The notes beneath the pieces are model-generated. The model did no database searches. It was not told the DNA's origin and saw only the letters and a list, made by a program, of their open reading frames with translations. A stretch of 64,000 bases of DNA. Origin: Laetmonice hystrix. Lineage: Eukaryota. Positions 119 through 43,083 of the stretch are shown one piece after another. The DNA lies in the NCBI GenBank assembly GCA_965235115.1, contig OZ249436.1, positions 27,778,001 through 27,842,000 of the forward strand, given 5' to 3'. The stretch's first letter is position 1, and every line of letters starts with the position of its first letter. The position numbers and the translations under genes are program-made.

Positions 119-2816
119 CTTAGCCAAACTGCCAGCAGAACCTCCCTTCGTCTCGTACACAGACAGTTTGCACCGAATTATTGACGATATCTCCTGCCAG
201 GTAGCGCGCAACGTCACACAGGTGAGTGGCCTGTTCTACAATCGGCCCACCACTGCATCGGATGTCCCACCTTAGAAACAAGAAACACAAAGTTTGGAAT
301 ACCTCACAATCATACGGGCGGTGGGGGGGGGGGGGGACTAATTCTATCAGGTTGCCATAAATTACCAATAATGATAAACGTGCAGAATAGCAGACCTTCG
401 CAGACCTTCCCGGTAAATTAGCAGAAAAGGAGAAGGGCTTGTTTTGCGTTAGGGCAAGTCTTGACTGTCAAAAAGAGGCGAAAACCATCGACCTTACCAG
501 TAAGCCGTGTCTCCGTGTTCGTATGCAAAATCCGAGCTCGGCGCCAAAGAGCCGGGATCATTTATGGAGGAGAAACGAGGGGTTTGCGTAGGTATGATAT
601 TAGTATAGGTACTCGCACATAATATGTATCTAGGACCCATGTCGTGTGCTCAGTATGTATTGTCAAGGAAATGTAAACAATAGCTGTACTCCCGTTAACC
701 ACCATCTTGGTTCTCGCCTCTCGCGCGGTCTGGGTCGGAAGTGACGAAGGCGACTTGGGAGACGATCCGGAGGGTATAAATACAACCGAGCAGAAGAGTC
801 GAGTTCTCTACCTTTGGAAGCTTCGTGGCAATCAGACGGCCCACCTCCGCCCCGACTCCTCCATGTTTCATGTCGACTTGGGGGAATATTCTGTCTCAAC
901 GCCTTTGCCTGGGTTAAATTATGTTTTTATGTAGACCTACTGGGTTTGGCTCGGGGTCAGCATGGCTGCCCGAGTTCTTTTCTCAGTTTGGTTGGATGGG
1001 GATGTATTTGGGTTCCTGGATGTTGTGGGCATTGTCTCCACCTAATAAGGCATTACTATACCTATATCTATGTATTTTGGACTATGTATTTCCATATAAT
1101 GTATTATCGGTTATGTATTATATTACTATAGTATTTTATGTTATGTTACATATATCAGTTACACCTTATATAGATTTATCATTTACCATATTATAATGTT
1201 TGTAGAGTCCCCCATTGCATGGGGTGATCGACGGGTTACTATGTGAATAAAATGTAACCTACAGCAAAGCATTCCCGTTCTCCGAGTTTGACTGCATAAA
1301 ATATAACGCGCGTTGAGAGCCATCACGTGACCACCGTGCTGGTCAATCAGCTCCTTCATCTTCCTCACGGCTGCATGATACCTAGGAACGTAGAATTGCA
1401 ACCGGTGTCACATTTTGAAACTTCCACCATTGTAGAAGTTCCATGTTAATTTGGTACTTTGATTCCCGGATGGACTGTGTAGGGTTCCCAGTGGATTGAC
1501 GCCCACTGTGCCGTTCTGAAAGTTCTTTGGTAGACTTTGATACGTGATCAAATTTCGGAAGTTATATCCGTAAAACAAAGTTTTCCTTCCGCGAGGTTAA
1601 CTCCTTTTAAACTCTGGAGACTATTAGGCAAAATAGTGGTGAATGGGAGTAACTTTTACCACGAGATGATGTTTTTAAGTTGCCTCTTCCCCCCACAATA
1701 ATCTTCGATCTCGAATGAAAAATGCATGTTTTCCCACACACCGTGAAAACCAAGGTCTCTTGTCCCCCATAATAATATGCGGAATTGAAGCACAGAATTG
1801 ATCCCCGGACCCACACCCATTCTCATAGCGTAAAGTATCAACGTCCATACCCAGTCAGCCATCGCCACTTCCATAAACAAGGAAGCTTTGGTGGTCGAGC
1901 AGCTCAATGGACCCTCCCCCTAGACACATCTTCCGACATATGATTTCTACGGAACATTCCACTCTTACGGGGTTGTGTCAAAGGGGGTCAAAAGGACGCA
2001 GCAGGTTAAACATACTACTAGACCTATATGTGCAAGTAACCTGAACATGTAGCCTACGGATACGATGACCCCAGTCTCTGCCTGAGCAGACATCATTGCC
2101 TCAACATACGCCTTGAAGTTGTCACCCTTGGCCAACGACAGCGGCTTCTCAACGAATACATGGACGCCCTTACGGACACATTGTAATTCGAGATCTTTTC
2201 CATCTTCCAACGAACCTCTGCATGATTGAGTTTTCCTTGTTAGTATACAAAGAGACGTCAGTATGACAGGCTAGCCAGGTCGCCAGCAGCTATAGCCACA
2301 GTTATCTAGGCCATATCACAACTGATGGTCATGACAAAGTCGCTGGTAGATAAAGTGCCGCAGCCCGTATATATAGTGACCCTCTTCCCCTCTTCCCAAC
2401 CTGAGCTTCTTAACAACGTACTAATAATAAAATCAAATGTGATAAGAAAAATTGCAATCCGTCAAAGAGGTTTGACCCTCAATACCGAATGCAGTCAATG
2501 GTCAATAAGAAACTTGGAAACTTTCTGACCTTACGAACGGAGGTGTGCCGATGATAACCACATCGGGCCTGCTGTGTTGGAGCAGGTCATTGGTTGAGCT
2601 GTACACCTGACAACCCTCATATATCCTAGCATGGACCCCGGCCCTACGTCTGGTTAGTGCCGTGTGGGCGACTTCCGGCAGAGGGTCGACGATTGCCACT
2701 ATCTCCACATTGGGTAGTTGTTCTAGACGAGAGGCGTGGTCCCATGGCCCCTCACCGCCTCCAAAGTTCACCTTCCCGGCGCCTATAAACGCGACACGGA
2801 GGCAGCGCTCGGACAT
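119..2816 (-). pseudogene. Oxidoreductase copy A (Gfo/Idh/MocA-like), exons 1-4 in window, disrupted
   Basis: Exons 2816-2530, 2217-2041, 1381-498 (split by a 767-bp insertion at 531-1297) and 270-119. Exon 4 is 152 nt versus 154 in the other copies (agaacctcccttcg vs agaacctgccccttcg), a 2-nt frameshift. Exons 5-6 would lie left of the window. Confidence 0.85.
531..1297 (+). mobile_element. Solo A-spacer-B remnant of the split-direct-repeat (Ngaro/DIRS-like) element
   Basis: Reverse complement of 16712-17447 with a few SNPs and indels: A 531-839, spacer 840-1027, B 1028-1297. Interrupts exon 3 of copy A within codons ATT TTT. TATAAAT lies in A (~775) and AATAAA in B (~1246). Confidence 0.85.
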
Positions 2817-7261: not shown

Positions 7262-10200
7262 CTATTTTTCAGCGTCACGGATAGCCCAGGTCATAAAGTA
7301 GGTTTTCGAGGCGTCGACGTAACTAGAACCGATGCCACTTCCATCTCTGGTGCGCACGGCCTGTAAGAAATGTTCCATTTCCGTCATGTACGGGTCGTCA
7401 TCCGGAAAGGTGAGCACTTCCTCCTCTTCACTCCCCGACCTGCGCACGCGCACGGTACAGGCGCTCGTGTACGGATCGTCCAGAACCAATCGCATACCGT
7501 CCATTATCACCTCAACCTGGGCTTCGTATCTGTGAAAGGGAAGGTCAAACACGGCAATGGTCAGAAATTTTGAAGAATACCTCTTATATGACCATCGTTT
7601 TCCAATATTATATAACAGTCATAAGTCTAAACTAGGTACAACTCTCATCATTTTCTTCCGAATAATGATCAAGAAAGCGGGGGAAAGGCGATAGTCTTTT
7701 TCAATTCAATGGTAATTGCGTGTATCTGATTTTCCCCGCAAATTTTACAAGGAAATATTTTAACATAGAGAAGATATCACGTCGTTTTGTTAAGTGCATG
7801 TATCTAGGCCAAACCCTTCTAAAAGTAGTCCACCAAATATTCCACCACGAATTTGAAACTTTAAGTTCTAGGCCCCTATATATTTGCATAATTTAAAGTA
7901 GGCCTGGATATGACCTGTAGGCAACAGGCGCGGATCCAGGAATTTTTGCAGGGGGGGGGGCGAAAGATGCGAGCCGCTGGAGGAGGGGGCAAAAAGTCTG
8001 GGGCCCTTCCCCGATAACATAGCAAAAACCTAAGTTGGTACTGAGCAGGGGGGGGGGGCGGACCCCCTGGACCACCACCCCCGGATCCGCGCCTGGGCAA
8101 ATCGGTATGTCAAATCAGAGAACGAGGGGCGGATCCATGGGTTTGATAAAGGATTTGATTAAATCAGCACACTGTTTCAAAAAAAATTCTGTTTAAAATC
8201 TGTTTAAGGGATTGTCAAACACGGCAATGGTCAGAAACTTTTGAAGAATACTTCTACCTCTTATGTGATCATCGTTTTCCAATATTATATAACAGATGAT
8301 CGCCATTCTTCTTATAATTCTAAACTAGGTACAACTCTCATCATTTTCTTCCGAATAATGACCAAGAAAGCGGGGGAAAGGCGATAGTCTTTTTCAATTC
8401 AATGGGAATTACGTGTATTGGATTTTCCCCGCAAATTTTACAAGGAAATATTTTAACATAGAGAAGATATCATGTCGTTTTGTTAAGTGACCGTATCTAT
8501 AGGCCAAACCCTTCTAAAAGTAGTCCACCAAATATTCCACTACGAATGTGAAACTTTAAGTTCTAGGCCCCTATATATTTGCATAATTCAAAGTAGGCCT
8601 GGATATGGTAAATCGGTATGTCAAATCGGAGAACGAGGGGCGGATCTATGGGTTTGATAAAGGAATTAAATCAGCACACTGTTTTAAAAAAAATTCGAGT
8701 CGTAATGAAATGTCGTAAACCAACAACTACTTCTTGTCGTGTAGTGCAACAGTGTGAAGAAGACAGCCGACCCCGCCACTTGTGAACTTCCACTGTGATA
8801 CGGTAACTCGGGGAGCACGGGCAGAATCGGGAAGACCCACGTCACAGCCGGCCGGAACCTTAGGAAAGACAATATCTGATCAAACCCAGCTATATATGAC
8901 ATTAAATGTAGTATAATACAGCTGGATTTATTTAGGCTGTATGCTTATATTCACTCCTGTCTTTTCAGTAACGAGGTTAGAAAAAAGAAAACTAGGAAGG
9001 GCGTGCGGAGGCCTTTCAAAGGAAGCAATTGTTAATCATGAAGATCAGCAGTGGTCTAAGACCCTACTCAAGTACGGAGGGTGCACAGGCAGCCCTTTGC
9101 CCACATTCTTATTCCATTATGGGCTATACTTTACCCAGTATTCGGTATTCGGGCTCTACCCTCACTATTCAAAGTGATCTAATCCTGCATGGTATCCTTA
9201 CCTTAGCCAAACTGCCAGCAGAACCTGCCCCATCGTCTCGTACACAGACAGTTTGCACCGAAGTATTGACGATATCTCCTGCCAGGTAGCGCGCAACGTC
9301 ACACAGGTGAGTGGCCTGTTCTACAATCGGCCCACCACTGCATCGGATGTCCCACCTTAGAAACAAGAAACGCAAAGTTTGGAATACCTCACAATCATAT
9401 GGGCGGTGGGGGGGGGGGGGGGCTAATTCTATCAGGTTGCCATAAATTACCAATAATGGTAAACGTGCAGAATAGCAGACCTTCGTTGTTGCCTCTGAAA
9501 ATTAGCACAAAAGAGGAGGGCGTGTCTTACGTTAGAGCACCTCTTGACTTACCAGTACGCATTGTCTGCGTGTTCGTATGCGAAAATATAACGCGCGTTG
9601 AGAGCCATCACGTGACCACCGTGCTGGTCAATCAGCTCCTTCATCTTCCTCACGGCTGCATGATACCTAGGAACGTAGAATTGCAACCGGTGTCACATTT
9701 TGAAACTTCCACCATTGTAGAAGTTCCATGTTAATTTGGTACTTTGATTCCCGGATGGACTGTGTAGGGTTCCCAGTGGATTGACGCCCACTGTGCCGTT
9801 CTGAAAGTTCTTTGGTAGACTTTGATACGTGATCAAATTTCGGAAGTTATATCCGTAAAACAAAGTTTTCCTTCCGCGAGGTTAACTCCTTTTAAACTCT
9901 GGAGACTATTAGGCAAAATAGTGGTGAATGGGAGTAACTTTTACCACGAGATGATGTTTTTAAGTTGCCTCTTCCCCCCACAATAATCTTCGATCTCGAA
10001 TGAAAAATGCATGTTTTCCCACACACCGTGAAAACCAAGGTCTCTTGTCCCCCATAATAATATGCGGAATTGAAGCACGGAATTGATCCCCGGACCCACA
10101 CCCATTCTCATAGCGTAAAGTATCAACGTCCATACCCAGTCAGCCATCGCCACTTCCATAAACAAGGAAGCTTTGGTGGTCGAGCAGCTCAATGGACCCT

Positions 10201-15543: not shown

Positions 15544-18500
15544 CTATTTTTCAGCGTTACGAATAGCCCAGGTCATAAAGTAGGTTTTCGAGGCGTCGAC
15601 GTAACTAGAAGCGATGCCACTTCCATCTCTGGTGCGCACGGCCTGTAAGAAATGTTCCACTTCCGTCATGTACGGGTCGTCATCCGGAAAGGTGAGCACT
15701 TCCTCCTCTTCACTCCCCGACCTGCGCACGCGCACGGTACAGGCGCTCGTGTACGGATCGTCCAGAACCAATCGCATACCGTCCATTATCACCTCAACCT
15801 GGGCTTCGTATCTGTTTAAAGGAAGGTCAAACACGGCAATGGTCTGAAACTTTTGAAGAATACCTCTTATATGACCATCGTTTTCCAATATTATATAACA
15901 GTCATGAGTCTAAACTAGGTACAACTCTCATCATTTTCTTCCGAATAATGATCAAGAAAGCGGGGGAAAGGCGATAGTCTTTTTCAATTCAATGGTAATT
16001 GCGTGTATCTGATTTTCCCCGCAAATTTTACAAGGAAATATTTTAACATAGAGAAGATATCACGTCGTTTTGTTAAGTGCATGTATCTAGGCCAAACCCT
16101 TCTAAAAGTAGTCCACCAAATATTCCACCACGAATTTGAAACTTTAAGTTCTAGGCCCCTATATATTTGCATAATTTAAAGTAGGCCTGGATATGACCTG
16201 TAGGCAACAGGCGCGGATCCAGGAATTTTTGCAGGGGGGGGGGGGCGAAAGATGCGAGCCGCTGGAGGAGGGGGCAAAAAGTCTGGGGCCCTTCCCCGAT
16301 AACATAGCAAAAACCTAAGTTGGTACTGAGCAGGGGGGGGGGGGCGGACCCCCTGGACCACCCCCCCGGATCCGCGCCTGGGCAAATCGGTATGTCAAAT
16401 CAGAGAACGAGGGGCGGATCCATGGGTTTGATAAAGGATTTGATTAAATCAGCACACTGTTTCAAAAAAAATTCTGTTTAAAATCTGTTTAAGGGATTGT
16501 CAAACACGGCAATGGTCAGAAACTTTTGAAGAATACTTCTACCTCTTATGTGATCATCGTTTTCCAATATTATATAACAGATGATCGCCATTCTTCTTAT
16601 AATTCTAAACTAGGTACAACTCTCATCATTTTCTTCCGAATAATGACCAAGAAAGCGGGGGAAAGGCGATAGTCTTTTTCAATTCAATGGGAATTACGTG
16701 TATTGGATTTTATGCAGTCAAACTCGGAGAACGGGAATGCTTTGCTGTAGGTTACATTTTATTCACATACATAGTAACCCGTTGATCACCCCATGCAATG
16801 GGGGACTCTACAAACATTATAATATGGTAAATGATAAATCTATATAAGGTGTAACTGATATATGTAACAACATAACAATACTATAGTAATATAATACATA
16901 ACCGATAATACATTATATGGAAATACATAGTCCAAAATACATAGATATAGGTATAGTAATGCCTTATTAGGTGGAGACAATGCCCACAACATCCAGGAAC
17001 CCAAATACATCCCTATCCAACCAAACTGAGAAAAGAACTCGGGCAGCCATGCTGACCCCAAGCCAAACCCAGTAGGTCTACATAAAAACATAATTTAAAC
17101 CAGGCAAAGGCGTTGAAACATGGAGGAGTCGGGGCGGAGGTGGGCCGTCTGATTGCCACGAAGCTTCCAAAGGTAGAGAACTCGACTCTTCTGCTCGGTT
17201 GTATTTATACCCTCCGGATCGTCTCCCAAGTCGCCTTCGTCATTTCCGACCCAGACCGCGCGAGAGGCGAGAACCAAGATGGTGGTTAACGGGAGTACAG
17301 CTATTGTTTACATTACCTCGACAATACATACTGAGCACATGACATGGGTCCTAGATACATATGTGCGAGTACCTATACTAATATACCTACGCAAACCCCT
17401 CGTTTCTCCTCCATAAATGATCCCGGCTCTTTGGCGCCGAGCTCGGATTTATGCAGTCAAACTCGGAGAACGGGAATGCTTTGCTGTAGGTTACATTTTA
17501 TTCACATACATAGTAACCCGTTGATCACCCCATGCAATGGGGGACTCTACAAACATTATAATATGGTAAATGATAAATCTATATAAGGTGTAACTGATAT
17601 ATGTAACAACATAACAATACTATAGTAATATAATACATAACCGATAATACATTATATGGAAATACATAGTCCAAAATACATAGATATAGGTATAGTAATG
17701 CCTTATTAGGTGGAGACAATGCCACTAAGCGGAATCGAAGATGAAGCTGGAGCCACCAAAGAAGGCAGGAGAAAAGACTCCTAACGCGACCCGCTGACAC
17801 CGCCCCAGGAGCCAAATCTACGCATCACCGTCAGACACAACTTGGAAATTAGGCACAGATCATCTCCTGGCCTAAACGAACGGATAGCGGAACCCATCAT
17901 CATCCAGTCCGATTAGGGGCATCTGGTGTACCTGCAACAAGCATATCAAGGCTTTGAATCATAAGACATACGGAAGAAGACCTTAGATCCTTGGAGTCAA
18001 CATCATAACGTCAGGTTAACAAGTTATAACACCCAGCTGCTTGACCAAACAGGAAGCACCCACCATTAAACTCCATTACACCATACTTACTTATCCTGGG
18101 AAATTGTGATAGACTGAGAAACTGGTGGAAAAACGTGACGGTATCCCATTCTACCACCTGGGACCATACTATAAATATTTAATAATAAATAACCGAACCG
18201 GGCAACAATCCAAACTTCCTCGTCATTGAACCGGGCGACAAAGCTGCCTCGTCACTGCACCGGACAACATTCCAATTAAAGCTTACTTCATCCACCTCCT
18301 TCAACGCGTCGTCTATCTAGCCGCCCCCGAGCACTTACCTACCACTTTGTACGGTACCAAACTAGTACCCACCAGACAGCTACAGAGCCCAACATTTAAT
18401 GATACACGGATCGTAACGTAAGCATAAGGTAACGTAAAAAGGGAAGACTACTGGAATAACAAATACTGGAGGTGAAGGACGCGCAAACGTAGCAGGAACC

Positions 18501-21500
18501 ATGAAAGTCGTAGTCAAAAACCGTGGAATCTGTTCACGCTTGGGAGTCCAACATACATCCAACATCGGATCTCTTGGGCCCGGGAGGTTTCCCAAAACTT
18601 AAAAAGATAACTGATCTTCGTATATACACATACACATAATAACCACATAACCACATCACATACACATAATAACCACAGGATCACATGAACAAGTTAAAGG
18701 CCTTGATATCCGAGACCAACCACAAACATGGGTTAAGCCTATACGCGGCAAGTATTCCACATACCTACAAGAAATACATTCCATAGAGATGGTAACTAAA
18801 GGAACCACTAAACCAAAACAACCTCTGAACCATACCGAACCCTGAATAATATAATTCGACACTCAGCCCTTCGAACAACATCACAGGTTCAAAACACGGG
18901 GAATTGACCTACCCACATCAGTAAACCTCCAAAGTCAACCGAAGACACATACTCAGCCAAACGTATCAGGAACCCTGAAAGTCGTAGTCAAAAACCGTGG
19001 AAACGCTTCACGCTTGGGAGTCCAACATACATCCAACATCGGATCTCTTGGGCCCGGGAGGGTTCCCAAAACTTAAAAAGATAACTGATCTCCGTATATA
19101 CACATACACATAATAACCACATAACCACATCACATACACATAATAACCACAGGATCATATGAACAAGTTAAAGGCCTTGATATCCGAGACCAACCACAAA
19201 CATGGGTTAAGCCTATACACATAATAACCACATATCCACATCACATACACATAATAACCACAGGATCACATGAACAAGTTAAAGGCCTTGATATCCGAGA
19301 CCAACCACAAACATGGGTTAAGCCTCTACGCGGCAAGTATTCCACATACCTACAAGAAAGACATTCCATAGAGATGGTAACTAAAGGAACCTCTAAACCA
19401 AAACAACCTCTGAACCATACCGAACCTTGAATAATATAAATCAACACTCAGCCTTCGAACAACATCACAGGTTCAAAACACGGGGAATTGACCTTACCCA
19501 CATCAGTAAACCTCCAAAGTCTACCAAAGACACATACTCAGCCTTCCATCAGCTCTTATCAGTACAAATGAATGTGTAAATATAGAATACGTCCCACGAC
19601 CCATGCACCAAAGCCATATGCTCAGCCTGTCGTCCACCTAAAATGGAAAATAACAAAAGACCGAAGAAACATCTGGCAGAGGAATAATAGTTACTGCCCT
19701 ATGACAAATACAATCAACTCAATATAAAAAAAATTGCATAAATTCCGCTTATACATTATGACAAATCAAATTAACCACCCAATAATACGATAATACTTAT
19801 TACCTTTATAGTTAACATTGAAATTATATAGTTAGACGAAATTACGATAAATATATAATATAATTATAGCCCTCAACACAAAGTAAAAACTAAATAGGCA
19901 ACATTTAACTAAGGTGACAACCCTGACTGACATTGTTAATAATTTTATCGAAGATACCTAATATTACCAAATTAACAAAATAGTACATTGAAAATTTGAC
20001 AGATAATTTACAAAGTTAATGAACAAGATATTTAAGTGCAGGCGGTCCCACCATAGCCTGAAGGCGAGGCAGATCCAAAAAGCGTAAACACATAGTACAC
20101 ACTAAAATACAGTAGAAGTGACCTGACTTACTAACACAACCTACCGACCTAAAATGACTTCTTGAACAACTTTAAAACAAGAAAATAAAGATTCAGCCCT
20201 AATCCTCGAAAAAGGCAGAGCGGAGGGGACATCCCCTCGCATCCATATACATAGGTACCCATCGATCACCCATCATGGGGACTAGAAGTACAATGCACCA
20301 AAGGATGTGGCAGCCTGCGGAAACCAGGCACATCTGCCGTAAAACAACTTGTAATATAACGGGGATGACGGAACCGAAGGGACCACACCGTCGACCCCAA
20401 GGTAATCCTATCAAGGGAGGACAGAACCCCACGGAACACGACACCACCCCCCCCCCCAACCAAGTTAACACAACCACAAGGGAAGGCGGAACCGAAGGGA
20501 CCACACACCGTCAACCCCACGGAACACGGCCCCATCCCCCAACCAAGTTAACACAACCACAAGGGAAAGCGGAACCGAAGGGACCACACACCGTCAACCC
20601 CACGGAACACGACACCACCCCCCAACCAAGTTAACACAACCACAAGGGAAAGCGGAACCGAAGGGACCACACACCGTCAACCCCACGGAACACGGCCCCA
20701 TCCCCCAACCAAGTTAACACAACCACAAGGGAAGGCGGAACCGAAGGGACCACACACCGTCAACCCCACGGAACACGGCCCCATCCCCCAACCAAGTTAA
20801 CACAACCACAAGGGAAAGCGGAACCGAAGGGACCACACACCGTCAACCCCACGGAACACGGCCCCATCCCCCAACCAAGTTAACACCACCACAAGGGAAG
20901 GCGGAACCGAAGGGACCACACACCGTCAACCCCACGGAACACGGCCCCATCCCCCAACCAAGTTAACACAACCACAAGGGAAAGCGGAACCGAAGGGACC
21001 ACACACCGTCAACCCCACGGAACACGGCCCCATCCCCCAACCAAGTTAACACAACCACAAGGGAAGGCGGAACCGAAGGGACCACACACCGTATGTTATA
21101 CCACATTAAGCCCACATCAGCAGAGCCCCGTTATTCGTAAACACAACACCCCCCCCCCACACCCCCCTCCTCCAACACACACACACACACCTCACTAACA
21201 CGAGGAAGGGTGGGGTGGGGTGGGTCTACAAACTATTGGCAAAATACTTAAACGACAAAACCTTTCAGATGAGGTGGTAGCTAAATCTACACGCCTATTA
21301 ATCAGGGGCAATTAGATTAAATGATGTAAATCCTGAAACAGAGGGACAGGTAGTCTGCCTAGTAAGGTTCAGGGGACAACTAAACTCAAAAATACAAAAT
21401 CAAATACTTACAAATGGATAGACTCAAAACAAAGCAACCACAAGGAGTGAATACCAAACTACTACATAGAAAATAACATTGACGAAATCCCCCCTACCAT

Positions 21501-24500
21501 GCGACTGCATCAATGAACCACACTGAACAGTGAGGGGCACCTGTCCAGATCCAGATATAATATCAGGGATAAGCCACTCGTTGGCTACAAGAGAAAGAAA
21601 ATTATCAGCGACACTAAATTAGAGTCCAACAAGTCAGGTAAAATTACATTCATCAAACCATCTCCAAAGCTTATCAGGTTAAAGCTGGTGCCAATACATC
21701 CAGATTAATCTGTCCACCGTAAATAAATACTTCTACCCGAATAACAGCACCACGTACCGCTCGAATACCAGCGCAGCATACCCACGTCCAAAAAGCACCC
21801 CAAGCAAACGGCAAGAAGCATTGCCGCCAAGCGATAAACACTGTATTTAACATAATCTAGGGAGGGCACTTCGAAAACCATACCAACTGTTGCAATTAGG
21901 AGCAGCAGTAAACGCCTATATAAGACGGGACTAGAAAAATTAAAGAACACCCGGCGTGTCAAGTTACAGCAGTTCACTGGTCAAGTCCCAAACCACCGAA
22001 GGACACAACATAACTTCTACCAACCTTCAACCCCACATAGTGAGGACTAGCGAAAAACACCAACTCCACGACAATGTAGGCCTACCTCACACTTTTACGA
22101 GCCTACCCCCACCATGATACACCACGTGGCAGGACAAACCGTTGTATAAGCTCAACCTTGGTACCGAACGCTATTACCCTACTCAACACGGAGTAAACCA
22201 CGGTAAAACAAAACTGAAATTATCGTACCCCCACTACCATTCTGGGACAAATACGTACACAAAATTACACAACATAGCACCGCCGACGTCGTCAGTCGCC
22301 CTCAATGTGTGGTGAACTAAAATAACTACAAACTCGTAACACAAATTGTCTACCAGGAGCTTCAAGTAGGCTAGCCGAGCCCGAACCACAAAGGTCAGGT
22401 CGACCACGTGGAAGCGACTGTGCGTCCTGCAACACTGCATGTGACTATTTCAGACACACATAAATACTGGGTACCGGTCTATAATACAGCCTCGAAAGAC
22501 GAATAACTGGAACTGTTTTAGACATAACACCTGCATATAGCCATTATAGGTGTCAAACACAAGGCAAATATAAGAAACAGTCGACAAACCACGTTCCACC
22601 GTATACTTGAAACGAAGTCCCAACCATAGAACGAACTCACCCGATGTGTGGGGAACGAATCCGTCTGATTGCCACGAAGCTTCCAAAGGTAGAGAACTCG
22701 ACTCTTCTGCTCGGTTGTATTTATACCCTCCGGATCATCTCCCAAGTCGCCTTCGTCATTTCCGACCCAGACCGCGCGAGAGGCGAGAACCAAGATGGTG
22801 GTTAACGGGAGTACAGCTATTGTTTACATTACCTCGACAATACATACTGAGCACATGACATGGGTCCTAGATACATATGTGCGAGTACCTATACTAATAT
22901 ACCTACGCAAACCCCTCGTTTCTCCTCCATAAATGATCCCGGCTCTTTGGCGCCGAGCTCGGATTTCCCCGCAAATTTTACAAGGAAATATTTTAACATA
23001 GAGAAGATATCATGTCGTTTTGTTAAGTGACCGTATCTATAGGCCAAACCCTTCTAAAAGTAGTCCACCAAATATTCCACTACGAATGTGAAACTTTAAG
23101 TTCTAGGCCCCTATATATTTGCATAATTCAAAGTAGGCCTGGATATGGTAAATCGGTATGTCAAATCGGAGAACGAGGGGCGGATCTATGGGTTTGATAA
23201 AGGAATTAAATCAGCACACTGTTTTAAAAAAAATTCGAGTCGTAATGAAATGTCGTAAACCAACAACTACTTCTTGTCGTGTAGTGCAACAGTGTGAAGA
23301 AGACAGCCGACCCCGCCACTTGTGAACTTCCACTGTGATACGGTAACTCGGGGAGCACGGGCAGAATCGGGAAGACCCACGTCACAGCCGGCCGGAACCT
23401 TAGGAAAGACAATATCTGATCAAACCCAGCTATATATGACATTAAATGTAGTATAATACAGCTGGATTTATTTAGGCTGTATGCTTATATTCACTCCTGT
23501 CTTTTCAGTAACGAGGTTAGAAAAAAGAAAACTAGGAAGGGCGTGCGGAGGCCTTTCAAAGGAAGCAATTGTTAATCATGAAGATCAGCAGTGGTCTAAG
23601 ACCCTACTCAAGTACGGAGGGTGCACAGGCAGCCCTTTGCCCACATTCTTATTCCATTATGGGCTATACTTTACCCAGTATTCGGTATTCGGGCTCTACC
23701 CTCACTATTCAAAGTGATCTAATCCTGCATGGTATCCTTACCTTAGCCAAACTGCCAGCAGAACCTGCCCCATCGTCTCGTACACAGACAGTTTGCACCG
23801 AATTATTGACGATATCTCCTGCCAGGTAGCGCGCAACGTCACACAGGTGAGTGGCCTGTTCTACAATCGGCCCACCACTGCATCGGATGTCCCACCTTAG
23901 AAACAAGAAACGCAAAGTTTGGAATACCTCACAATCATATGGGCGGTGGGGGGGGGGGGGGCTAATTCTATCAGGTTGCCATAAATTACCAATAATGGTA
24001 AACGTGCAGAATAGCAGACCTTCGTTGTTGCCTCTGAAAATTAGCACAAAAGAGGAGGGCGTGTCTTACGTTAGAGCACCTCTTGACTTACCAGTACGCA
24101 TTGTCTGCGTGTTCGTATGCGAAAATATAACGCGCGTTGAGAGCCATCACGTGACCACCGTGCTGGTCAATCAGCTCCTTCATCTTCCTCACGGCTGCAT
24201 GATACCTAGGAACGTAGAATTGCAACCGGTGTCACATTTTGAAACTTCCACCATTGTAGAAGTTCCATGTTAATTTGGTACTTTGATTCCCGGATGGACT
24301 GTGTAGGGTTCCCAGTGGATTGACGCCCACTGTGCCGTTCTGAAAGTTCTTTGGTAGACTTTGATACGTGATCAAATTTCGGAAGTTATATCCGTAAAAC
24401 AAAGTTTTCCTTCCGCGAGGTTAACTCCTTTTAAACTCTGGAGACTATTAGGCAAATAGTGGTGAATGGGAGTAACTTTTACCACGAGATGATGTTTTTA

Positions 24501-25639
24501 AGTTGCCTCTTCCCCCCACAATAATCTTCGATCTCGAATGAAAAATGCATGTTTTCCCACACACCGTGAAAACCAAGGTCTCTTGTCCCCCATAATAATA
24601 TGCGGAATTGAAGCACGGAATTGATCCCCGGACCCACACCCATTCTCATAGCGTAAAGTATCAACGTCCATACCCAGTCAGCCATCGCCACTTCCATAAA
24701 CAAGGAAGCTTTGGTGGTCGAGCAGCTCAATGGACCCTCCCCCTAGACACATCTTCCGACATATGATTTCTACGGAACATTCCACTCTTACGGGGTTGTG
24801 TCAAAGGGGGTCAAAAGGACGCAGCAGGTTAAACATACCACTAGACCTATATGTGCAACTAACCTGAACATGTAGCCTACGGATACGATGACCCCAGTCT
24901 CTGCCTGAGCAGACATCATTGCCTCAACATACGCCTTGAAGTTGTCACCCTTGGCCAACGACAGCGGCTTCTCAACGAATACATGGACGCCCTTACGGAC
25001 ACATTGTAATTCGAGATCTTTTCCATCTTCCAACGAACCTCTGCATGATTGAGTTTTCCTTGTTAGTATACAAAGAGACGTCAGTATGACAGGCTAGCCA
25101 GGTCGCCAGCAGCTATAGCCACAGTTATCTAGGCCATATCACAACTGATGGTCATGACAAAGTCGCTGGTAGATAAAGTGCCGCAGCCCGTATATATAGT
25201 GACCCTCTTCCCCTCTTCCCAACCTGAGCTTCTTAACAACGTACTAATAATAAAATCAAATGTGATAAGAAAAATTGCAATCCGTCAAAGAGGTTTGACC
25301 CTCAATACCGAATGCAGTCAATGGTCAATAAGAAACTTGGAAACTTTCTGACCTTACGAACGGAGGTGTGCCGATGATAACCACATCGGGCCTGCTGTGT
25401 TGGAGCAGGTCATTGGTTGAGCTGTACACCTGACAACCCTCATATATCCTAGCATGGACCCCGGCCCTACGTCTGGTTAGTGCCGTGTGGGCGACTTCCG
25501 GCAGAGGGTCGACGATTGCCACTATCTCCACATTGGGTAGTTGTTCTAGACGAGAGGCGTGGTCCCAAGGCCCCTCACCGCCTCCAAAGTTCACCTTCCC
25601 GGCGCCTATAAACGCGACACGGAGGCAGCGCTCGGACAT
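15544..25639 (-). CDS. Oxidoreductase copy C, 6 exons; intron 5 holds the 6.25-kb split-repeat element
   Basis: Exons 25639-25353, 25040-24864, 24205-24092, 23895-23742, 23398-23271, 15811-15544. Exon lengths and splice sites match copy B. Confidence 0.85.
16208..16380. mobile_element. Poly-G/C MITE (duplicate of 7925-8095)
   Basis: Same TIR and GGCAA TSD. Confidence 0.8.
18480..19545. repeat. Internal tandem duplication (~475-bp unit, second copy with extra ~110-bp sub-duplication)
   Basis: gaaagtcgtagtcaaaaaccgtgg at ~18503 and ~18978. cacataataaccacaggatca occurs three times. Near-identical ORFs 18656-18862 and 19241-19447. Confidence 0.85.
20370..21091. repeat. 83-bp minisatellite inside the split-repeat element
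   Basis: ggaaccgaagggaccacacaccgtc starts at 20488, 20571, 20654, 20737, 20820, 20903, 20986 and 21069 (period 83), with a degenerate lead-in at 20370. Confidence 0.95.
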
Positions 25640-30085: not shown

Positions 30086-33000
30086 CTATTTTTCAGCGTT
30101 ACGAATAGCCCAGGTCATAAAGTAGGTTTTCGAGGCGTCGACGTAACTAGAAGCGATGCCACTTCCATCTCTGGTGCGCACGGCCTGTAAGAAATGTTCC
30201 ACTTCCGTCATGTACGGGTCGTCATCCGGAAAGGTGAGCACTTCCTCCTCTTCACTCCCCGACCTGCGCACGCGCACGGTACAGGCGCTCGTGTACGGAT
30301 CGTCCAGAACCAATCGCATACCGTCCATTATCACCTCAACCTGGGCTTCGTATCTGTTTAAAGGAAGGTCAAACACGGCAATGGTCTGAAACTTTTGAAG
30401 AATACCTCTTATATGACCATCGTTTTCCAATATTATATAACAGTCATGAGTCTAAACTAGGTACAACTCTCATCATTTTCTTCCGAATAATGATCAAGAA
30501 AGCGGGGGAAAGGCGATAGTCTTTTTCAATTCAATGGTAATTGCGTGTATCTGATTTTCCCCGCAAATTTTACAAGGAAATATTTTAACATAGAGAAGAT
30601 ATCACGTCGTTTTGTTAAGTGCATGTATCTAGGCCGAACCCTTCTAAAAGTAGTCCACCAAATATTCCACCACGAATTTGAAACTTTAAGTTCTAGGCCC
30701 CTATATATTTGCATAATTTAAAGTAGGCCTGGATATGACCTGTAGGCAACAGGCGCGGATCCAGGAATTTTTGCAAGGGGGGGGGGGCGAAAGATGCGAG
30801 CCGCTGGAGGAGGGGGCAAAAAGTCTGGGGCCCTTCCCCGATAACATAGCAAAAACCTAAGTTGGTCCTGAGCAGGGGGGGGGGGGGGTCGGGGCCCCCT
30901 GGACCCCCCCCGGATCCGCGCCTGGGCAAATCGGTATGTCAAATCAGAGAACGAGGGGCGGATCCATGGGTTTGATAAAGGATTTGATTAAATCAGTACA
31001 CCGTTTCAAAAAAAATTCGAGTCGTAATGTAATGTCGTAAACCAACAACTACTTCTTGTCGTGTAGTGCAACAGTGTGAAGAAGACAGCCGACCCCGCCA
31101 CTTGTGAACCTCCACTGTGATACGGTAACTCGGGGAGCACGGGCAGAATCGGGAAGACCCACGTCACAGCCGGCCGGAACCTTAGGAAAGACAATATCTG
31201 ATCAAACCCAGCTATATATGACATTAAATGTAGTATAATACAGCTGGATTTATTTAGGCTGTATGCTTATATTCACTCCTGTCTTTTCAGTAACGAGTTT
31301 AGAAAAAAGAAAACTAGGAAGGGGGCGCGGAGGCCTTTCAAAGGAAGCAATTGTTAATCATGAAGATCAGCAGTGGTCTAAGACCCTACTCAAGTACGGA
31401 GGGTGCACAGGCAGCCCTTTGCCCACATTCTTATTCCATTATGGGCTATACTTTAACCAGTATTCGGTATTCGGGCTCTACCCTCACTATTCAAAGTTAT
31501 CTAATCCTGCATGGTATCCTTACCTTAGCCAAACTGCCAGCAGAACCTGCCCCTTCGTCTCGTACACAGACAGTTTGCACCGAATTATTGACGATATCTC
31601 CTGCCAGGTAGCGCGCAACGTCACACAGGTGAGTGGCCTGTTCTACAATCGGCCCACCACTGCATCGGATGTCCCACCTTAGAAACAAGAAACGCAAAGT
31701 TTGGAATACCTCACAATCATACGGGCGGTGGGGGGGGGGGGGGGGGGCTAATTCTATCAGGTTGCCATAAATTACCAATAATGATAAACGTGCAGAATAG
31801 CAGACCTTCGTTGTTGCCCCTGAAAATTAGCAGAAAATGAGGAGGGCGTGTCTTGCGTTAGAGCTTGACTCTTGACTTTGAAAAGGAGACGAAAACCAAC
31901 GACCTTACCAGTACGCGTTGTCTGAGTGTTCGTATGCGAAAATATAACGCGCGGTGAGAGCCATCACTTGCGAACCGTGCTGGTCAATCAGCTCCTTCAT
32001 CTTCCTCACGGCTGCATGATACCTAGGAACGTAGAATTGCAACCGGTGTCACATTTTGAAACTTCCACCATTTTTTGTAGAAGTTCCATGTTAATTTGAT
32101 ACTTTAATTCCCTGATGGATTGTGTAGGGTTCCCAGTGGATTAACGCTCAGAGTGTCGTTCTGAAGGTCCGCGAGGTTAACTCCTTTTAAACTCTGGAGA
32201 CTATTAGGCAAAATAGTGGTGAATGGGAGTAACTTTTACCACGAGATGATGTTTTTAAGTTGCCTCCTCCCCCCACAATAATCTTCGATCTCGAATGAAA
32301 AATGCATGTTTTTCCACACACCGTGAAAACCAAGGTCTCTTGTCCCCCATAATAATTTGCGGAATTGAAGCACGGAATTGATCCCCGGACCCACACCCAT
32401 TCTCATAGCGTAAAGTATCAACGTCCATACCCAGTCAGCCATCGCCACTTCCATAAACAAGGAAGCTTTGGTGGTCGCAGCAGCAGGTTAAACATACCAC
32501 TAGACCTATATGTGCACCTAACCTGAACATGTAGCCTACGGATACGATGACCCTAGTCTCTGCCTGAGCAGACATCATTGCCTCAACATACGCCTTGAAG
32601 TTGTCACCCTTGGCCAACGACAGTGGCTTCTCAACGAATACATGGACGCCCTTACGGACACATTGTAATTCGAGGTCTTTCCCATCTTCCAACGAACCTC
32701 TGCATGAATGAGTTTTCCTTGTTAGTATACAACGAGGCTTCAGTATGGCAGGCTAGCTAGGTCGCCAGCAGCTATAGCGACAATTATTTAGGCCATATCA
32801 CAACTGATGGTCATGACAAAGTTGCCAGTACTGCAGTAGATAAAGTGCTGCAGCCCGTATATATAGTGACCCTATTCTCCTCTTCCCAGCCTGAGCTTCT
32901 TAACAACGTACTAATAATAAAATCAAATGTGATAAGAAAAATTGCAATCCGTCAAAGAGGCTTGACCCTCAATACCGAATGCAGTCAATGGTCAATAAGA

Positions 33001-33744: not shown

Positions 33745-36020
33745 TATTTTTTATTCAAATAAATCAGCTTATAATTACAGAGTCGATACAATTTTTTGGA
33801 GCTGGATGACAACCTTAGGCCTATATGACCTATGTCGGAGTCTACATCTCATTCTGGTTTACAAAAATAATTTTTTTAAGCGATGAGATCTATATCAAAA
33901 AAGCTGAATATTCAAATAAATTGGCGTGGAAAATGTATGAAACACAAATCTAAATAAACCATATCACTGAAATAAAGTAGTATGTATGAATAATATTATA
34001 GAATTAACAACGGCATAGGCAACAGTAGAAAACAGTAGAAAACTAATTATGAGAAAAATGTGAATATATAACGGTTGCCAATCAGGATTCTTCAGAAAGT
34101 AGAACATGCTTTACATGTCTTTAAAAACCTCAATACAACAGTTATTCTCAAAAAGTTCAGAGTATTCATTACCTAGACGAGGAAGCTGTACAAATCTTGA
34201 TTTCTCCATATATGAGGTTCTAAATTTAGGTATATGCCAATCATTATCCTGCCTAGTTTCTCGAAGTTTCATTTGTTTATTTTTCTGAAATAGAACTGAA
34301 AAGGTAGAGGGCAAAAATTCATTTCTAATTTTATAAATTAAAATTAGGATACTATATTTATACAGTAAATTTAAAGGTAGAATACCTAAAGATTTAGAAA
34401 GAGGAATTGTATGGTCTAACTAACCACTACCAGACAGTAACCTAATGATTTTTTCTGTAATAAAACTAATGGTGACAGTGCAGTATCCCCTGCAGACCCC
34501 CAAACTATTATACCATTTATGAGACATGGGTATATAAAGCTATAGTATAAATTTCTTAGGTTTTCCCTAGATATAGTTTTAACAAATTTTTTTATAATTG
34601 CAAAGTTTTTGCTGATTTTCAGAAAAATATAATTAATATGTGATTTCCAATTTAACTTTTCATCTATAATATATCCTAGAAACTTAATTTTATTAATTCT
34701 TTCAATTTGATGATTATTCATAACTGAAGATTTGCCAATAATAGGATCCGTTCCCTTTCTAGAAAATAAAATAAATTTAGACTTTTTTATGTTTAAGGTC
34801 AATATTACAAACTTTTTGTCTAAAGCTGTTTTGGTTTACATTACTAAAGACTCTTGAAACTTTACCATTTGTTGACTGACAATTTTCCATGCAACAAATA
34901 TCTGAGAATAATAAAAAGTGGTCACTGATATCCAGTGATATTACCCCAGACTCATATACAACTCTTATTTCTAACAAAAATATTATCAATTAATGTTTTG
35001 CTTCCAGCTTTGGACCATCTGGTAGGAACATTAATCATTGGAACATAATCATATTCTGCCAAGATATTCACAAATGTGCCTATTTGTTTATCTCTATGAC
35101 TATGAAGGAGATTTAAATTATAATCTCCGCAAATATATATTATGTCTTTACTCTCACCTAAAAATTCCAAAAATCTTGAAAATTCTTCCAAGAAAAGTTT
35201 TATGTCCCCACTTGGGGGTCAATACACCGAACCTACAATCATCCCTTGAGTTTTAACAAGAGTATCACTAGGAATCCTAATAAATATAGATTCGATATTT
35301 TCATTGTTAATCTTTAAAGCATCCAAGGTTATCACCGAAATATAAGGTCTGGTGTAAATAGACACACCTCCTCCTTTTTTCTTTCTGGACCTTACAGAGT
35401 GATGACCTTGAAAATTTCCAATGCTATACAGATCCAATGTAGTTGCATCAAGCCAAGTCTCTGATAAGGTAATAATTGGATATTGACTCAGAAATATTTC
35501 TAAATTTTCTAAGTTCTTTGGGACACTCCTAATATTTAATGACAGAATTTTTTGAGTTTGGTTGGAAGAATTTCTATCATTAAAATCTTCTGGTGTATAC
35601 GTAGCACATGAGATTTGAGTGTTAAAATGTAAATTATAGTCTGGGTCATAGGGTAAATGTTGTTTTGGGATTTCCAAAATATCCTCAAAAAATTCAAATA
35701 GTTCTTGGTTCCGCGACTGATTCCAATCTCCTTCAAAGTCCAGGGAATTAATTGGGAGAATTCTTTCTAAACATGACAGACACATGGCTGGATCAGTTAT
35801 ACAATCACAGACAAAATCTATGTGTAATCGTAAGAAAACACGTTCATTTCAAAGGCAAAATTGGACTCCAACTCTTCCATATCAATCATAAGTGCATAAT
35901 AGTATATATAAATAGATATGTATACAAAAAAAGACATCTGTTACCTTCTGGTGTAGAAAGAAGTGATAATATACCTAGGCTTATATATTATATAAGCCTA
36001 GGTAAGATCTCCGGAGTTAT
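33745..36020 (-). mobile_element. Decayed CR1-clade LINE ORF2 with the RT core deleted
   Basis: AP-endonuclease motifs LNIRS, LSETWL, GGGVSIY, CGDYN, PTR..TLIDNIF and ISDH. These join at ~34800 directly to post-RT motifs LNIKKSKFILF and IKFLGYIIDEKLNWKSHI. Stops and frameshifts present; outer boundaries approximate. Confidence 0.85.
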
Positions 36021-39240: not shown

Positions 39241-42200
39241 CTATTTTTCAGCGTTACGGATAGCCCAGGTCATAAAGTAGGTTTTCGAGGCGTCGACGTA
39301 ACTAGAAGCGATGCCACTTCCGTCTCCGGTGCGCACGGCCTGTAAGAAATGTTCCATTTCCGTCATGTACGGGTCGTCATCCGGAAAGGTGAGCACTTCC
39401 TCCTCTTCACTCCCCGACCTGCGCACGCGCACGGTACAGGCGCTCGTGTACGGATCGTCCAGAACCAATCGCATACCGTCCATTATCACCTCAACCTGAA
39501 CGTCGTATCTGTGAAAGGGATTGTCAAACACGGCAATGTGCAGAAACTGTTAAAGAAGTACTTTTTTTATTCCCATCTGGTTGTTTTCCGATATGATGAT
39601 TCATTCTTCTTATAAGTCTAACCTAGGTACAACTGTCATCATTTTCTTCCGAATAATGACCGAGAACACTGTTTCAAAAAAGAGTGAGAGTCGTAATGTA
39701 ATGTCGTAAAGCAACAACTACTTCTTTCCATGTAGTGCAACAATGCGAAGAAGACAGCCGACCCCGCCACTTGTGAACCTCCACTGTGATACGGTAACTC
39801 GGGGAGCACGGGCAGAATCGGGAAGACCCACGTCACAGCCGGCCGGAACCTTAGGAAAGACAATATCTGATCAAACCCAGCTATATATGACATTAAATGT
39901 AGTATAATACAGCTGGATTTATTTAGGCTGTATGCTTAGATTCACTCCTGTCTTTTCAGTAACGAGTTTAGAAAAAAGAAAACTAGGAAGGGGGTGCGGA
40001 GGCCTTTCAAATGAATCAATTGTTAATCATGAAGATCGGCAGTGGTCTAAGACCCTAAGTACGGAGGGTGCACAGGCAGCCCTTTGCCCACATCGTCAAT
40101 CGGTCACTTTACCCAGTATGATATGATGGAGATTCGGGATGCCGGCTCTACCCGACTATTCAAAGTGATCTACTCCTGCATGGTATCCTTACCTTAGCCA
40201 AACTGCCAGCAGAACCTGCCCCTTCGTCTCGTACACAGACAGTCTGCACCGAATTATTGACGATATCTCCTGCCAGGTAGCGCGCAACGTCACACAGGTG
40301 AGTGGCCTGTTCTACAATCGGCCCACCACTGCATCGGCTGTCCCACCTTAGAAACAAGAAACGCATATGGGCGGTGGGGGGGGGGGGGGGCTAATTCTAT
40401 CAATGCCAATAGGTTTCCCCTCTTTGATTTTCTATAGTGTACGGGCCTAATAATGATAAACGTGCAGAATAGCGGGCCTAATAATGATAAACGTGCAGAA
40501 TAGCAGGCCTTCGCAGACCTTTCCGGTAAATTGGCACAAAAGGAAGAGGGTGTGTCTTGCGTTTGGGCAAGTCTTGACTGTCAAAAAGAGGCGAAAACCA
40601 TCGACCTTACCAGTGTGGGTTGTCTGCGTGTTCGTATGCTAATGTATAACGCGCGGTGAGAGCCATCACGTGACCACCGTGCTGGTCAATCAGCTCCTTC
40701 ATCTTCCTCACGGCTGCATGATACCTAGGAACGTAGAATTACAACCGGTGCCACATTTTGAAACTTCCACCATTGTAGAAGTTCCATGTTAATTTGATAC
40801 TTTGATTCCCTGATGGACTGTGTAGGATTCCCAGTGGATTAACGCTCAGAGTGTCGTTCTGAAGGTTCTTTGGTAGACTTTGATACGTGCTCAAAGTTCC
40901 TGAAGTTATAGGGGGGGGGGGGGGGTGGTCAAAAGGACGCAGCGAGTTAAACATACCTATATGTGCAACTAACCTGAACATGTAGCCTACGGATACGATG
41001 ACCCCAGCCTCTGCCTGAGCAGACATCATTGCCTCAACATACGCCTTGAAGTTGTCACCCTTGGCCAACGACAGCGGCTTCTCAACGAATACATGGACGC
41101 CCTTACGGACATATTGTAATTCGAGATCTTTCCCATCTTCTAGCGAACCTCTGCATTGAGCATGGGTTTTTATTGTTAGTATACAACGAGGCTTCAGTAT
41201 AGCAGGCCACCTAAGGCCCGTTTCATGACTCGTTAAGAAAATGCGTTAATTACTGCGCGCTAGTTGATAGCGCGAAGTTTAATGCATTTTGCTGAGAGTC
41301 ACTCGGCTCACCATTGACTGACTTCGTCATGTCTCGGCTGTACAACGCAGACAACAACAAACTCGCGTGGTGCCGCCGTCCAAAACATGGCAAACCCCCC
41401 ACTAAACCTGTGTCGACTTTACAGAGTTAAAATATGTGATTTGCTTTGTTATCGCGACCCGAGACCCGCGATAAATCTCGACCCGAGAAATCTCGACCTG
41501 CGATTGATCAGCACGATAGGCCTACTTTTGGGCCACCATAGGTGAACCTGACCTAGAAGCAGCCACGATGTTCCTAGTGTGTTGAGAGTGTGAGTGTACA
41601 TCCGTTGACGTTATACAGCAACTTTTTAGGCCGACAGTGGATGTATTTTTACAAAAAAGTCGAAGATTATGTGTAATAACATAATAATATGCGGTAGACC
41701 TACCAGCACGTGCTGTATATTTGTATACAGTACCGCGCTCTGTTAATTTACAGCAAATTGTATTGTAGATTTTATTACATGCAGGAAAAGATCTGGACTG
41801 TTGTCTGACTGAGCCCGCAACTTAAACATGTGATTGAACGGGTTAATTTTACAGTTCCCGCCAAAAGGGGGTTACTCCGACCCCCTCGAGGCCCCCTGGC
41901 TAAAATCACAACTTATAGTCAGTGGATAAAGTACGGGAGCCCGTATATATATTTATTTTATGGCTGCCGCACTTTCCCTGTCCTGATTGGTCAGTTCCCT
42001 GTCACGTGATCACAGATAAAAACTAATATTGCACGGAAAAAGTAATATTGACCAGTCAATATTACTTTTGCATTGCCGTCAAGTGTTTTCACCCCCTCGT
42101 GCAAATAGGCTCCTAGGCATTCTTAACGTAAGTTTAATAGAACAGCCTGGGGGTGACAGCGTATGATAGCAAAGCGGAAACTACGCGAGGCTGAGTTCAG

Positions 42201-43083
42201 AATCTTATATAGCCTCTAGTTTAGGCTAGCTCTAGGCCTAGCTAGATAAAGCAGTCGTGAACACGATGGATCCCTGTAGCCTATCTAATTTCCCGACATG
42301 AGAAGTTTATGTGGTGACTGATTGTTAATTGGTCATGGTTTTGATCATGAATTGTGAGTACTGACGCACTGAGGCTCAGCACCGGTAGGCCTAGGTCTAG
42401 ATGATGAGTCTTATGAAGTAAAGTTAAACTGACTGTGCAGTCGTCGATGGGTCCTGGCATAGACAGGAAAAGTGCGGCAGTCATAAAATAAAACAAATAT
42501 GGCACTTGGTATCGTGCAGTATGAAAATTTATGGCACTCTGGAAACTGATATTGCACTCCGCTTCGCGTCGTGCAATATCAGTTGCCATCGTGCCATAAA
42601 TTTTCATATTGCACTCAACCAAGTGCCATATTTGTATAATAGTGACCCTATTCTCCTCTTCCCAGCCTGAGCTTCTTAACAACGTACTAATAATAAAATC
42701 AAATGCGATTAAGAAAAATTGCAATCCGTCAAAGAGGTTTGACCCTCAATACCGAATGCAGTCAATGGTCAATAAGAAACTTGGAAACTTTCTGACCTTA
42801 CGAACGGAGGTGTGCCGATGATAACCACATCGGGCCTGCTGTGTTGGAGCAGGTCTTTGGTTGAGCTGTACACCTGACAACCCTCATATATCCTAGCATG
42901 GACCCCGGCCCTACGTCTGGTTAGTGCCGTGTGGGCTACTTCCGTCAGAGGGTCGACGATTGCCACTATCTCCACATTGGGTATTTGTTCTAGACGAGAG
43001 GCGTGGTCCCAAGGCCCCTCACTGTTTCCAAAGTTAACCCTCCCGGCGCCTATAAACGCGACACGGAGGCAGCGCTCAGACAT
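39241..43083 (-). CDS. Oxidoreductase copy E (most divergent), 6 exons
   Basis: Exons 43083-42797, 41150-40974, 40724-40611, 40346-40193, 39849-39722, 39508-39241. Exon lengths are conserved while introns diverge. N-terminus MSERCLRVAFIGAGRVNFGNSEGPW. Confidence 0.9.
41950..42638. mobile_element. Insertion in intron 1 of copy E with subterminal IR and terminal long hairpin (Crypton-like non-autonomous)
   Basis: Inserted in cccgtatatatagtgaccc, a site that is empty in A-D. IR tatggctgccgcactttccctgtc / gacaggaaaagtgcggcagtcata. Hairpin with ~65-bp arms at ~42493-42635. Confidence 0.55.

Follow-up and report, generated by a model that had tools for sequence, protein, structure and literature searches.

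Retrotransposons with split direct repeats share a layout, A1-[interior]-B1A2B2, that is common to the Ngaro, PAT-like, Toc and VIPER groups (bioRxiv 10.1101/2021.08.05.455354, PMC4157794, PMC13465315), and such groups are told apart by their proteins and not by structure alone (PMC4157794; here and throughout, statements taken from the literature refer to the consulted parts of the papers cited). TOC1 of Chlamydomonas reinhardtii is a non-autonomous element of the DIRS order, and TOC3 is the version of it that encodes a tyrosine recombinase (YR) (PMC9940879, PMC5613634). The analysis presented here concerns a 64-kb stretch of contig OZ249436.1 from Laetmonice hystrix (the window, from whose start all coordinates are counted), which contains a 6,252-bp element on its minus strand (16712..22963, delimited by self-comparison and exact comparison). 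The element is very young, multi-copy and gene-less, and it is probably a non-autonomous split-direct-repeat YR retrotransposon of the DIRS order, with the Ngaro/PAT layout, TOC1-like and moved in trans. The kind is already known from TOC1, which is about 5.7 kb long and has split repeats, a short spacer and a tandem array in its interior, and lacks a long open reading frame (ORF); the element is a clean new example of it. TOC1 differs in having a named partner, TOC3, and in being algal, whereas the element described here has an animal host, and the two are likened by structure.

Self-comparison and exact comparisons established the order of parts on the minus strand as A1 (22661..22963, 303 bp), a non-coding, G+T-rich interior (17724..22660, 4,937 bp), B1 (17451..17723, 273 bp), an AAA core (17448..17450), A2 (17145..17447, 303 bp), a spacer (16985..17144, 160 bp) and B2 (16712..16984, 273 bp). 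By exact comparison A1 and A2 differ at one of 303 positions, without gaps, the sole difference being a CpG-to-TpG change in A1 at 22737 relative to both A2 and the solo copy described below, and B1 and B2 show no mismatch in 273 bp. An earlier sequence-only reading of the stretch had proposed this order of repeats and spacer on the minus strand, with one mismatch between the A copies and none between the B copies, and all of its coordinates match. Exact comparison gave no match between the 160-bp spacer and the interior, nor between the interior and the rest of the window. The element begins and ends TCC...CAT, which is neither TG..CA nor CG..CG, and no terminal or subterminal inverted repeat was found at its ends.

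The insertion can be read directly against an empty copy of its target in a sister gene copy (8424..8426, minus strand). By exact comparison the empty site is GGGG-AAA-ATCC, the filled site is GGGG-AAA-[TCCGAG...GCAT]-AAA-ATCC, and the internal B1|A2 joint is GCAT-AAA-TCC, a copy of the predicted circle junction. The AAA core at the 5' end of the element lies at 22964..22966 (minus strand; TTT on the plus strand), and that at the 3' end at 16709..16711 (minus strand), where the target ATCC comes next. Between filled and sister copies, two of 2,672 flanking bases differ on one side and nine of 1,164 on the other, with no substitutions across 7624-9262. Three older paralogous sites (7721, 16004 and 30546) are empty too, which favours insertion over precise loss. 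The earlier claim that the element occupies one of three near-identical tandem units stands insofar as it is present in a single unit; the exact site, though, exists in two units only, the match to the third ending at 31018, short of the insertion site.

A solo A-spacer-B copy belonging to another subfamily lies elsewhere in the window (531..1297, plus strand; A 531-839, spacer 840-1027, B 1028-1297), bracketed by AAA at 528-530 and 1298-1300 and differing from the long element by 4-5 substitutions plus some gaps per repeat. Its empty counterparts, at 9572, 24111 and 31928, read GCG-AAA-ATAT. Both insertion targets contain AAAAT, a word that has its start at 0.28% of positions in the remainder of the window. 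In both window insertions (2/2) AAA stands at either end while the empty target has a single AAA, with no variable duplication, and exactly three Ts are present at 5/5 junctions examined once the target is subtracted. In DIRS elements a junction trinucleotide flanks either end, and the presence of AAA at both ends and at B1|A2 matches this feature of DIRS-order integration (PMC7192593). The solo copy and the AAA core, shared by the two ends and the B|A junction, are signatures beyond those listed in the sequence-only reading.

The interior carries no sign of coding capacity. Its minus-strand base fractions are A 0.177, C 0.173, G 0.279 and T 0.371, and its plus-strand bias, (A+C-G-T)/n, is 0.298 (0.233 without repeats), compared with -0.040 to 0.034 in 106 windows elsewhere. 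Tandem or duplicated sequence makes up 35% of it, including an 83-bp tandem repeat (20453..21092; 7.7 copies, 97% matches) and overlapping internal duplications of 260-330 bp (18484..19543; divergence about 3%) that contain sub-repeats of 111 bp and 30 bp. No stop-to-stop frame of the element exceeds 143 amino acids, and the one of that length extends into the 83-bp repeat. Strong strand bias, padding by tandem repeats and the lack of a long ORF, each of them proposed beforehand from the letters, are all borne out. In the three interior segments free of repeats, shuffles reproduce the stop counts, the codon periodicity and the length of the longest ORF (p 0.15-0.97). For the duplicated block at 18484-19543, 2 of 30 tests came out borderline (p 0.035-0.05), as repeats can cause.

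Protein searches agreed. None of 154 stop-to-stop frames of at least 30 amino acids (82 minus, 72 plus) reached the Pfam cut-off, there being weak scattered matches with a best E of 0.0039, and no Pfam family reached it in the six interior frames read with stops as X. Two matches in those read-through frames, RVT_N (E 0.049, plus strand) and FRG (E 0.035), are far below cut-off and were taken as chance. No PHROG family was found in the six read-through interior frames. Two large protein searches covered a single minus frame each: the frame of 19063-22659 (1,199 residues) had no match among 1.84 billion proteins, and that of 21200-22658 had none among 5,193 candidates. The gag, reverse transcriptase (RT)/RNase H and YR reading frames by which an autonomous Ngaro is defined were thus not detected by Pfam, PHROG or the two protein searches. 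Rfam gave no matches at E up to 1, and no tRNA genes were found. With frames and periodicity at shuffle level and no protein matches in these searches, the interior is therefore not derived from a coding element by recent deletion.

These features determine how far the element can be classified. Among Ngaro elements, DIRS-53_XT of Xenopus likewise has identical repeat pairs, which at 236 and 152 bp are comparable in size to those here (bioRxiv 10.1101/2021.08.05.455354); it and Ngaro1-4 of Cafeteria share the A1-[interior]-B1A2B2 layout and a length of about 6 kb, and Ngaro1-4 have solo AB copies (PMC8547959) like the one in the window. Ngaro elements differ in encoding gag, RT/RNase H and YR, and even the deletion forms in Cafeteria are still part-coding, whereas the interior described here holds no detectable coding relic and is 35% tandem or duplicated. 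Pat1-like elements of the echinoderm form, known from sea urchin, limpet and sea anemone, have the order A1-B1-A2-B2 as well, but they are defined by a methyltransferase, a gag zinc finger and phylogeny, and the element is without a readable protein (PMC4157794). Ngaro is set apart from the PAT-like group by lacking the methyltransferase domain and by the phylogeny of RT and YR. SIRE, the lone A2-B2 stretch of VIPER in Trypanosoma cruzi, resembles the solo copy at 531-1297, whereas VIPER itself is coding and confined to kinetoplastids; whether SIRE moves by itself is called open in that source (PMC6681497). The coding features being absent and the layout being common to Ngaro, PAT, Toc and VIPER, the element cannot be filed as Ngaro: the "Ngaro-type" label given to it earlier is right for the layout and not for the class, since PAT-like, Toc and VIPER elements share that layout (PMC4157794).

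In the literature searched, with Repbase, Dfam, supplements and Goodwin and Poulter 2004, where entries of this kind may exist, outside the search, no large gene-less split-repeat element was described in an animal. The phrase for a gene-less split-repeat element was found there only for TOC1. One zebrafish paper reportedly names a "DIRS-N1". The consulted part of PMC12477816 holds nothing on gene-less forms.

Predicted signals are placed at the ends of the repeats on one strand. The TATA-box match TATAAATA, a predicted promoter, is at 22718..22725 in A1 and 17202-17209 in A2 (minus strand; A position 239, 65 bases before the A end), and AATAAA is at 17497-17502 in B1 and 16758-16763 in B2 (B position 222, 52 bases before the B end), each arising in about 5% of 2,000 shuffles. 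A TATA box in A and an AATAAA in B had been claimed before, and both are present on the minus strand, near the A end and the B end respectively. The minus strand of the interior has no AATAAA, which is uninformative with 0.4 expected. A candidate splice donor matching the consensus, GGTGAGT, lies 20 nt past A1 (22635..22641, minus strand); it has a chance of about 1.4% per 60 nt of interior composition and was spotted post hoc. The minus strand of the element has two perfect splice-donor matches, of which this is one, and the plus strand has none; the candidate might play a part in the mechanism. The candidate donor is also in sense orientation within the host intron.

Evidence for a family came from contigs of four sequencing runs (X1-X4) of one sample, possibly the one that was assembled. 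They were compared with 16985-18620, in which the spacer, A and B each occur a single time, as do 900 bp of interior, and the results given are those among the matches listed (272 loose ends and 1,432 pieces overall). All 30 bins of this segment were covered in all four runs. In X1 the depth was 1,937 for an exact interior piece and 1,027 for another interior type of about 90% identity; ten hand-picked rare variants had depths of 32-92, and the depth ratio would suggest roughly 20-60 copies of this interior type, depth being no copy number. At least three contigs (records 10, 18 and 26, of which 10 and 18 are possibly one locus) cease matching exactly at 17448 and run on into other sequence, and a diverged contig (record 9) spans the B|A junction (17383-17556, with 15 other letters). 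The A-interior junction is also represented, by a loose end at 17147 in X2, together with exact interior pieces; none of the pieces listed spans the whole of 16985-18620. The other flanks, the second interior subfamily and the very high depth indicate that the element belongs to a family. A young, non-coding, multi-copy family with the layout of a YR retrotransposon, as envisaged in the sequence-only reading, is thus supported, and further copies do exist, both as the solo at 531-1297 and as contigs with other flanks.

The contigs also bear on how the repeats came to be alike. Alleles found in the window are a minority in the pool, namely 11-20% at A site 17243 (three runs) and, in X1, 13% at 17060 in the spacer and 21% at 17522 in B. 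Both A and both B copies of the long element carry such minority alleles, as is expected if the repeats were rebuilt from one template. The depth of the window-type A allele relative to exact interior was 2.3 in X1, 2.0 in X2 and 3.1 in X3, where 2 is expected. B and A reach about 4-5 times the interior depth in X3 and X4, and the full form is therefore probably outnumbered by solos or by copies whose interior differs.

Two further contig observations touch on the forms that the family takes. In X1 and X2 a joint at 17145-17790 fuses the A end to a point 67 bp before B, with 3-bp microhomology and single-copy-like depth; it is an internal deletion form. In X4, record 26 (1,402 bp) has a B end that runs into about 1,170 other bases at a mean depth of 327, about five times the interior, and its flank motif is not in the window. 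This may be a solo inside another high-copy repeat, which could explain the dominance of that subfamily.

The data allow a cycle to be proposed for a non-autonomous YR retrotransposon of this form. Transcription would begin just past the predicted TATA box near the end of A1, proceed across B1 and stop close to the AATAAA in B2. The RT of a partner would copy this RNA, with the internal B1-AAA-A2 block as the template from which the absent first part of A1 and last part of B2 are restored, and such rebuilding would reset A1 to A2 and B1 to B2 at every jump. Closure of the product would yield a circle joined by GCAT-AAA-TCC, and the partner recombinase would cross the AAA of the circle with a genomic AAA preceding AT or AAT. 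Solo A-spacer-B copies would arise by later recombination between A1 and A2. Some polychaetes reportedly have diverse DIRS and Ngaro families (bioRxiv 10.64898/2026.02.25.703748), which makes a partner plausible if the host is an annelid; a comparison of the end motifs with metagenome and viral contigs gave no matches, and an animal genome is not expected there.

Several points weigh against this account. The searches found no coding relic (YR, RT, RNase H or gag) that would connect the element to a partner, and, B1 being identical to B2, how the AATAAA of B1 is passed lacks explanation. The promoter and poly(A) motifs each occur at about 5% by chance taken singly, and B carries a TATA-like match on the opposite (plus) strand as well. 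The window holds only two insertion sites with an empty counterpart, and the left flank of the solo departs from its empty sites at the base adjoining the core. In the contigs, the X3 ratio is 3.1 rather than 2, contig depth is not a copy number, all four runs come from one sample, and the minority-allele argument alone leaves a 10-20% chance of two independent units.

The alternative that survives best, itself decidedly unlikely, is a DNA-only, Crypton-like YR family in which an A-interior-B circle and an A-spacer-B circle integrated at AAA, one landing at the left junction of the other and so giving the semblance of split direct repeats. Cryptons integrate by crossing a short terminal motif with a matching target (bioRxiv 10.1101/2022.05.23.493040), and the left junction here would be a good target, having the entire right arm of the circle junction; the short A-spacer-B unit does occur alone at 531-1297, and the excess of B and A over interior in X3 and X4 fits with such units. 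Two independent circles would not, however, be expected to give the same minority alleles in all four repeats, nor a window-type A allele near two per interior in two of three runs, and the B|A junction recurs in a diverged copy. The TATA box and AATAAA are placed where an RNA cycle needs them. Furthermore, the core is 3 bp, whereas a terminal direct repeat of 4-6 bp is given for Cryptons, and the definition of Cryptons in the same source has no long split repeats, which are 273-303 bp here (PMC13465315).

It is very improbable that A-spacer-B is a long terminal repeat (LTR), of an LTR-type (Troyka) or KolobokP-type element whose 5' copy was rearranged, or that the layout is a local assembly error. 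A-spacer-B has its signals in promoter-then-poly(A) order and occurs as a solo, Troyka LTR elements generate 3-bp duplications (PMC12440569) and KolobokP forms solos and multimers (PMC9587614). Against this, the TCC...CAT ends have no terminal inverted repeat, an identical AAA is found at two unrelated sites and inside the element, and A1 leads into the interior with B1 coming after it, an order that an LTR pair would not give. As for assembly error, the contigs contain the A-interior junction, the B|A junction and exact interior pieces, with no listed piece spanning the whole stretch. The least credible proposal, a tandem composite of non-autonomous rolling-circle elements of the Helentron/HINE type, draws on a T-rich target with Ts at both ends as in HINEs (PMC4067079), on internal tandem repeats with strand bias and on a 10-bp palindrome, CCGAGCTCGG, at the A end, but it founders on three points. 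Helentrons and HINEs have subterminal inverted repeats of 11-15 bp, and a comparison of the first 60 bp with the last 60 bp for ones of 11-13 bp, with 2 mismatches allowed, found none, the longest exact match being 6 bp; end folding is no better than shuffles (z -0.51 to 0.74); and the T count is fixed at three at 5/5 junctions after target subtraction. As to a stem-loop near the 3' end, another Helentron trait, the A end has a loop-less 5-bp stem (a stem of at least 5 bp appears there in 28% of shuffles) and the B end has none.

The non-autonomous YR retrotransposon thus favoured sits in a tandem gene array. Its host is a Gfo/Idh/MocA oxidoreductase gene copy (15544..25639, minus strand; six exon blocks by tblastn, with PF01408 on paralogous frames), and it lies within the last intron in the same orientation as the gene. 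Positions 1-43100 of the window hold five tandem, intron-containing paralogs of this oxidoreductase, each of six exons on the minus strand, with first exons at 43080, 33303, 25636, 11098 and 2813, and the three 8.3-kb tandem units are 98.6-99.7% identical. A diverged (84-95%) duplication of about 500 bp, comprising last intron and exon start, is present at 7528-8696 and 15810-16711 in only two gene copies, and the element is inserted inside it. Elsewhere, an AT-rich stretch at 35219-35848 (minus strand) contains a partial frame for a LINE-type endonuclease (Pfam PF03372 at E 0.00035, which does not reach the cut-off).

The solo copy interrupts exon 3 of the paralog whose first exon is at 2813, antisense to the gene, and marks a sharp switch between host paralogs. 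To its left, 31 of 495 bases differ from the neighbouring gene copy, five of them within the last 27, and this flank, about 6% diverged, partly resembles the gene copy at 40400-40640. To its right there are no differences for about 490 bp, including a site 16 bases in where two older paralogs differ, and self-comparison places the start of the triplicated 8.3-kb block at the B end of the solo. Ordinary unequal exchange stalling at the insertion explains this switch best. A more adventurous explanation, which we hold to be unlikely, is that the AAA-core junctions of the family are live recombinase sites at which a partner YR recombines host DNA; recombinase action has been reported at Crypton targets in Chlamydomonas (bioRxiv 10.1101/2022.05.23.493040). 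If true, a gene-less YR retroelement would have seeded rearrangement of a host gene array, and gene-less elements of 6-9 kb would be a widespread class in marine invertebrates, overlooked by protein-based surveys.

A survey of YR retrotransposons in fungi took only elements with a detectable domain (PMC3783388), and since YR surveys are mostly protein-based, gene-less families escape them or are entered as unclassified repeats. In the window itself, one host paralog has been disrupted by the family, and the last intron of another has gained two sense-strand AATAAA signals. The locus lends itself well to testing: the full copy and the solo copy each have an empty counterpart, and the core is three bases long. 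The specificity of DIRS-order recombinases is described as untested (PMC7192593), and, if a partner is found, this locus would give the cis sequences that such a recombinase needs.

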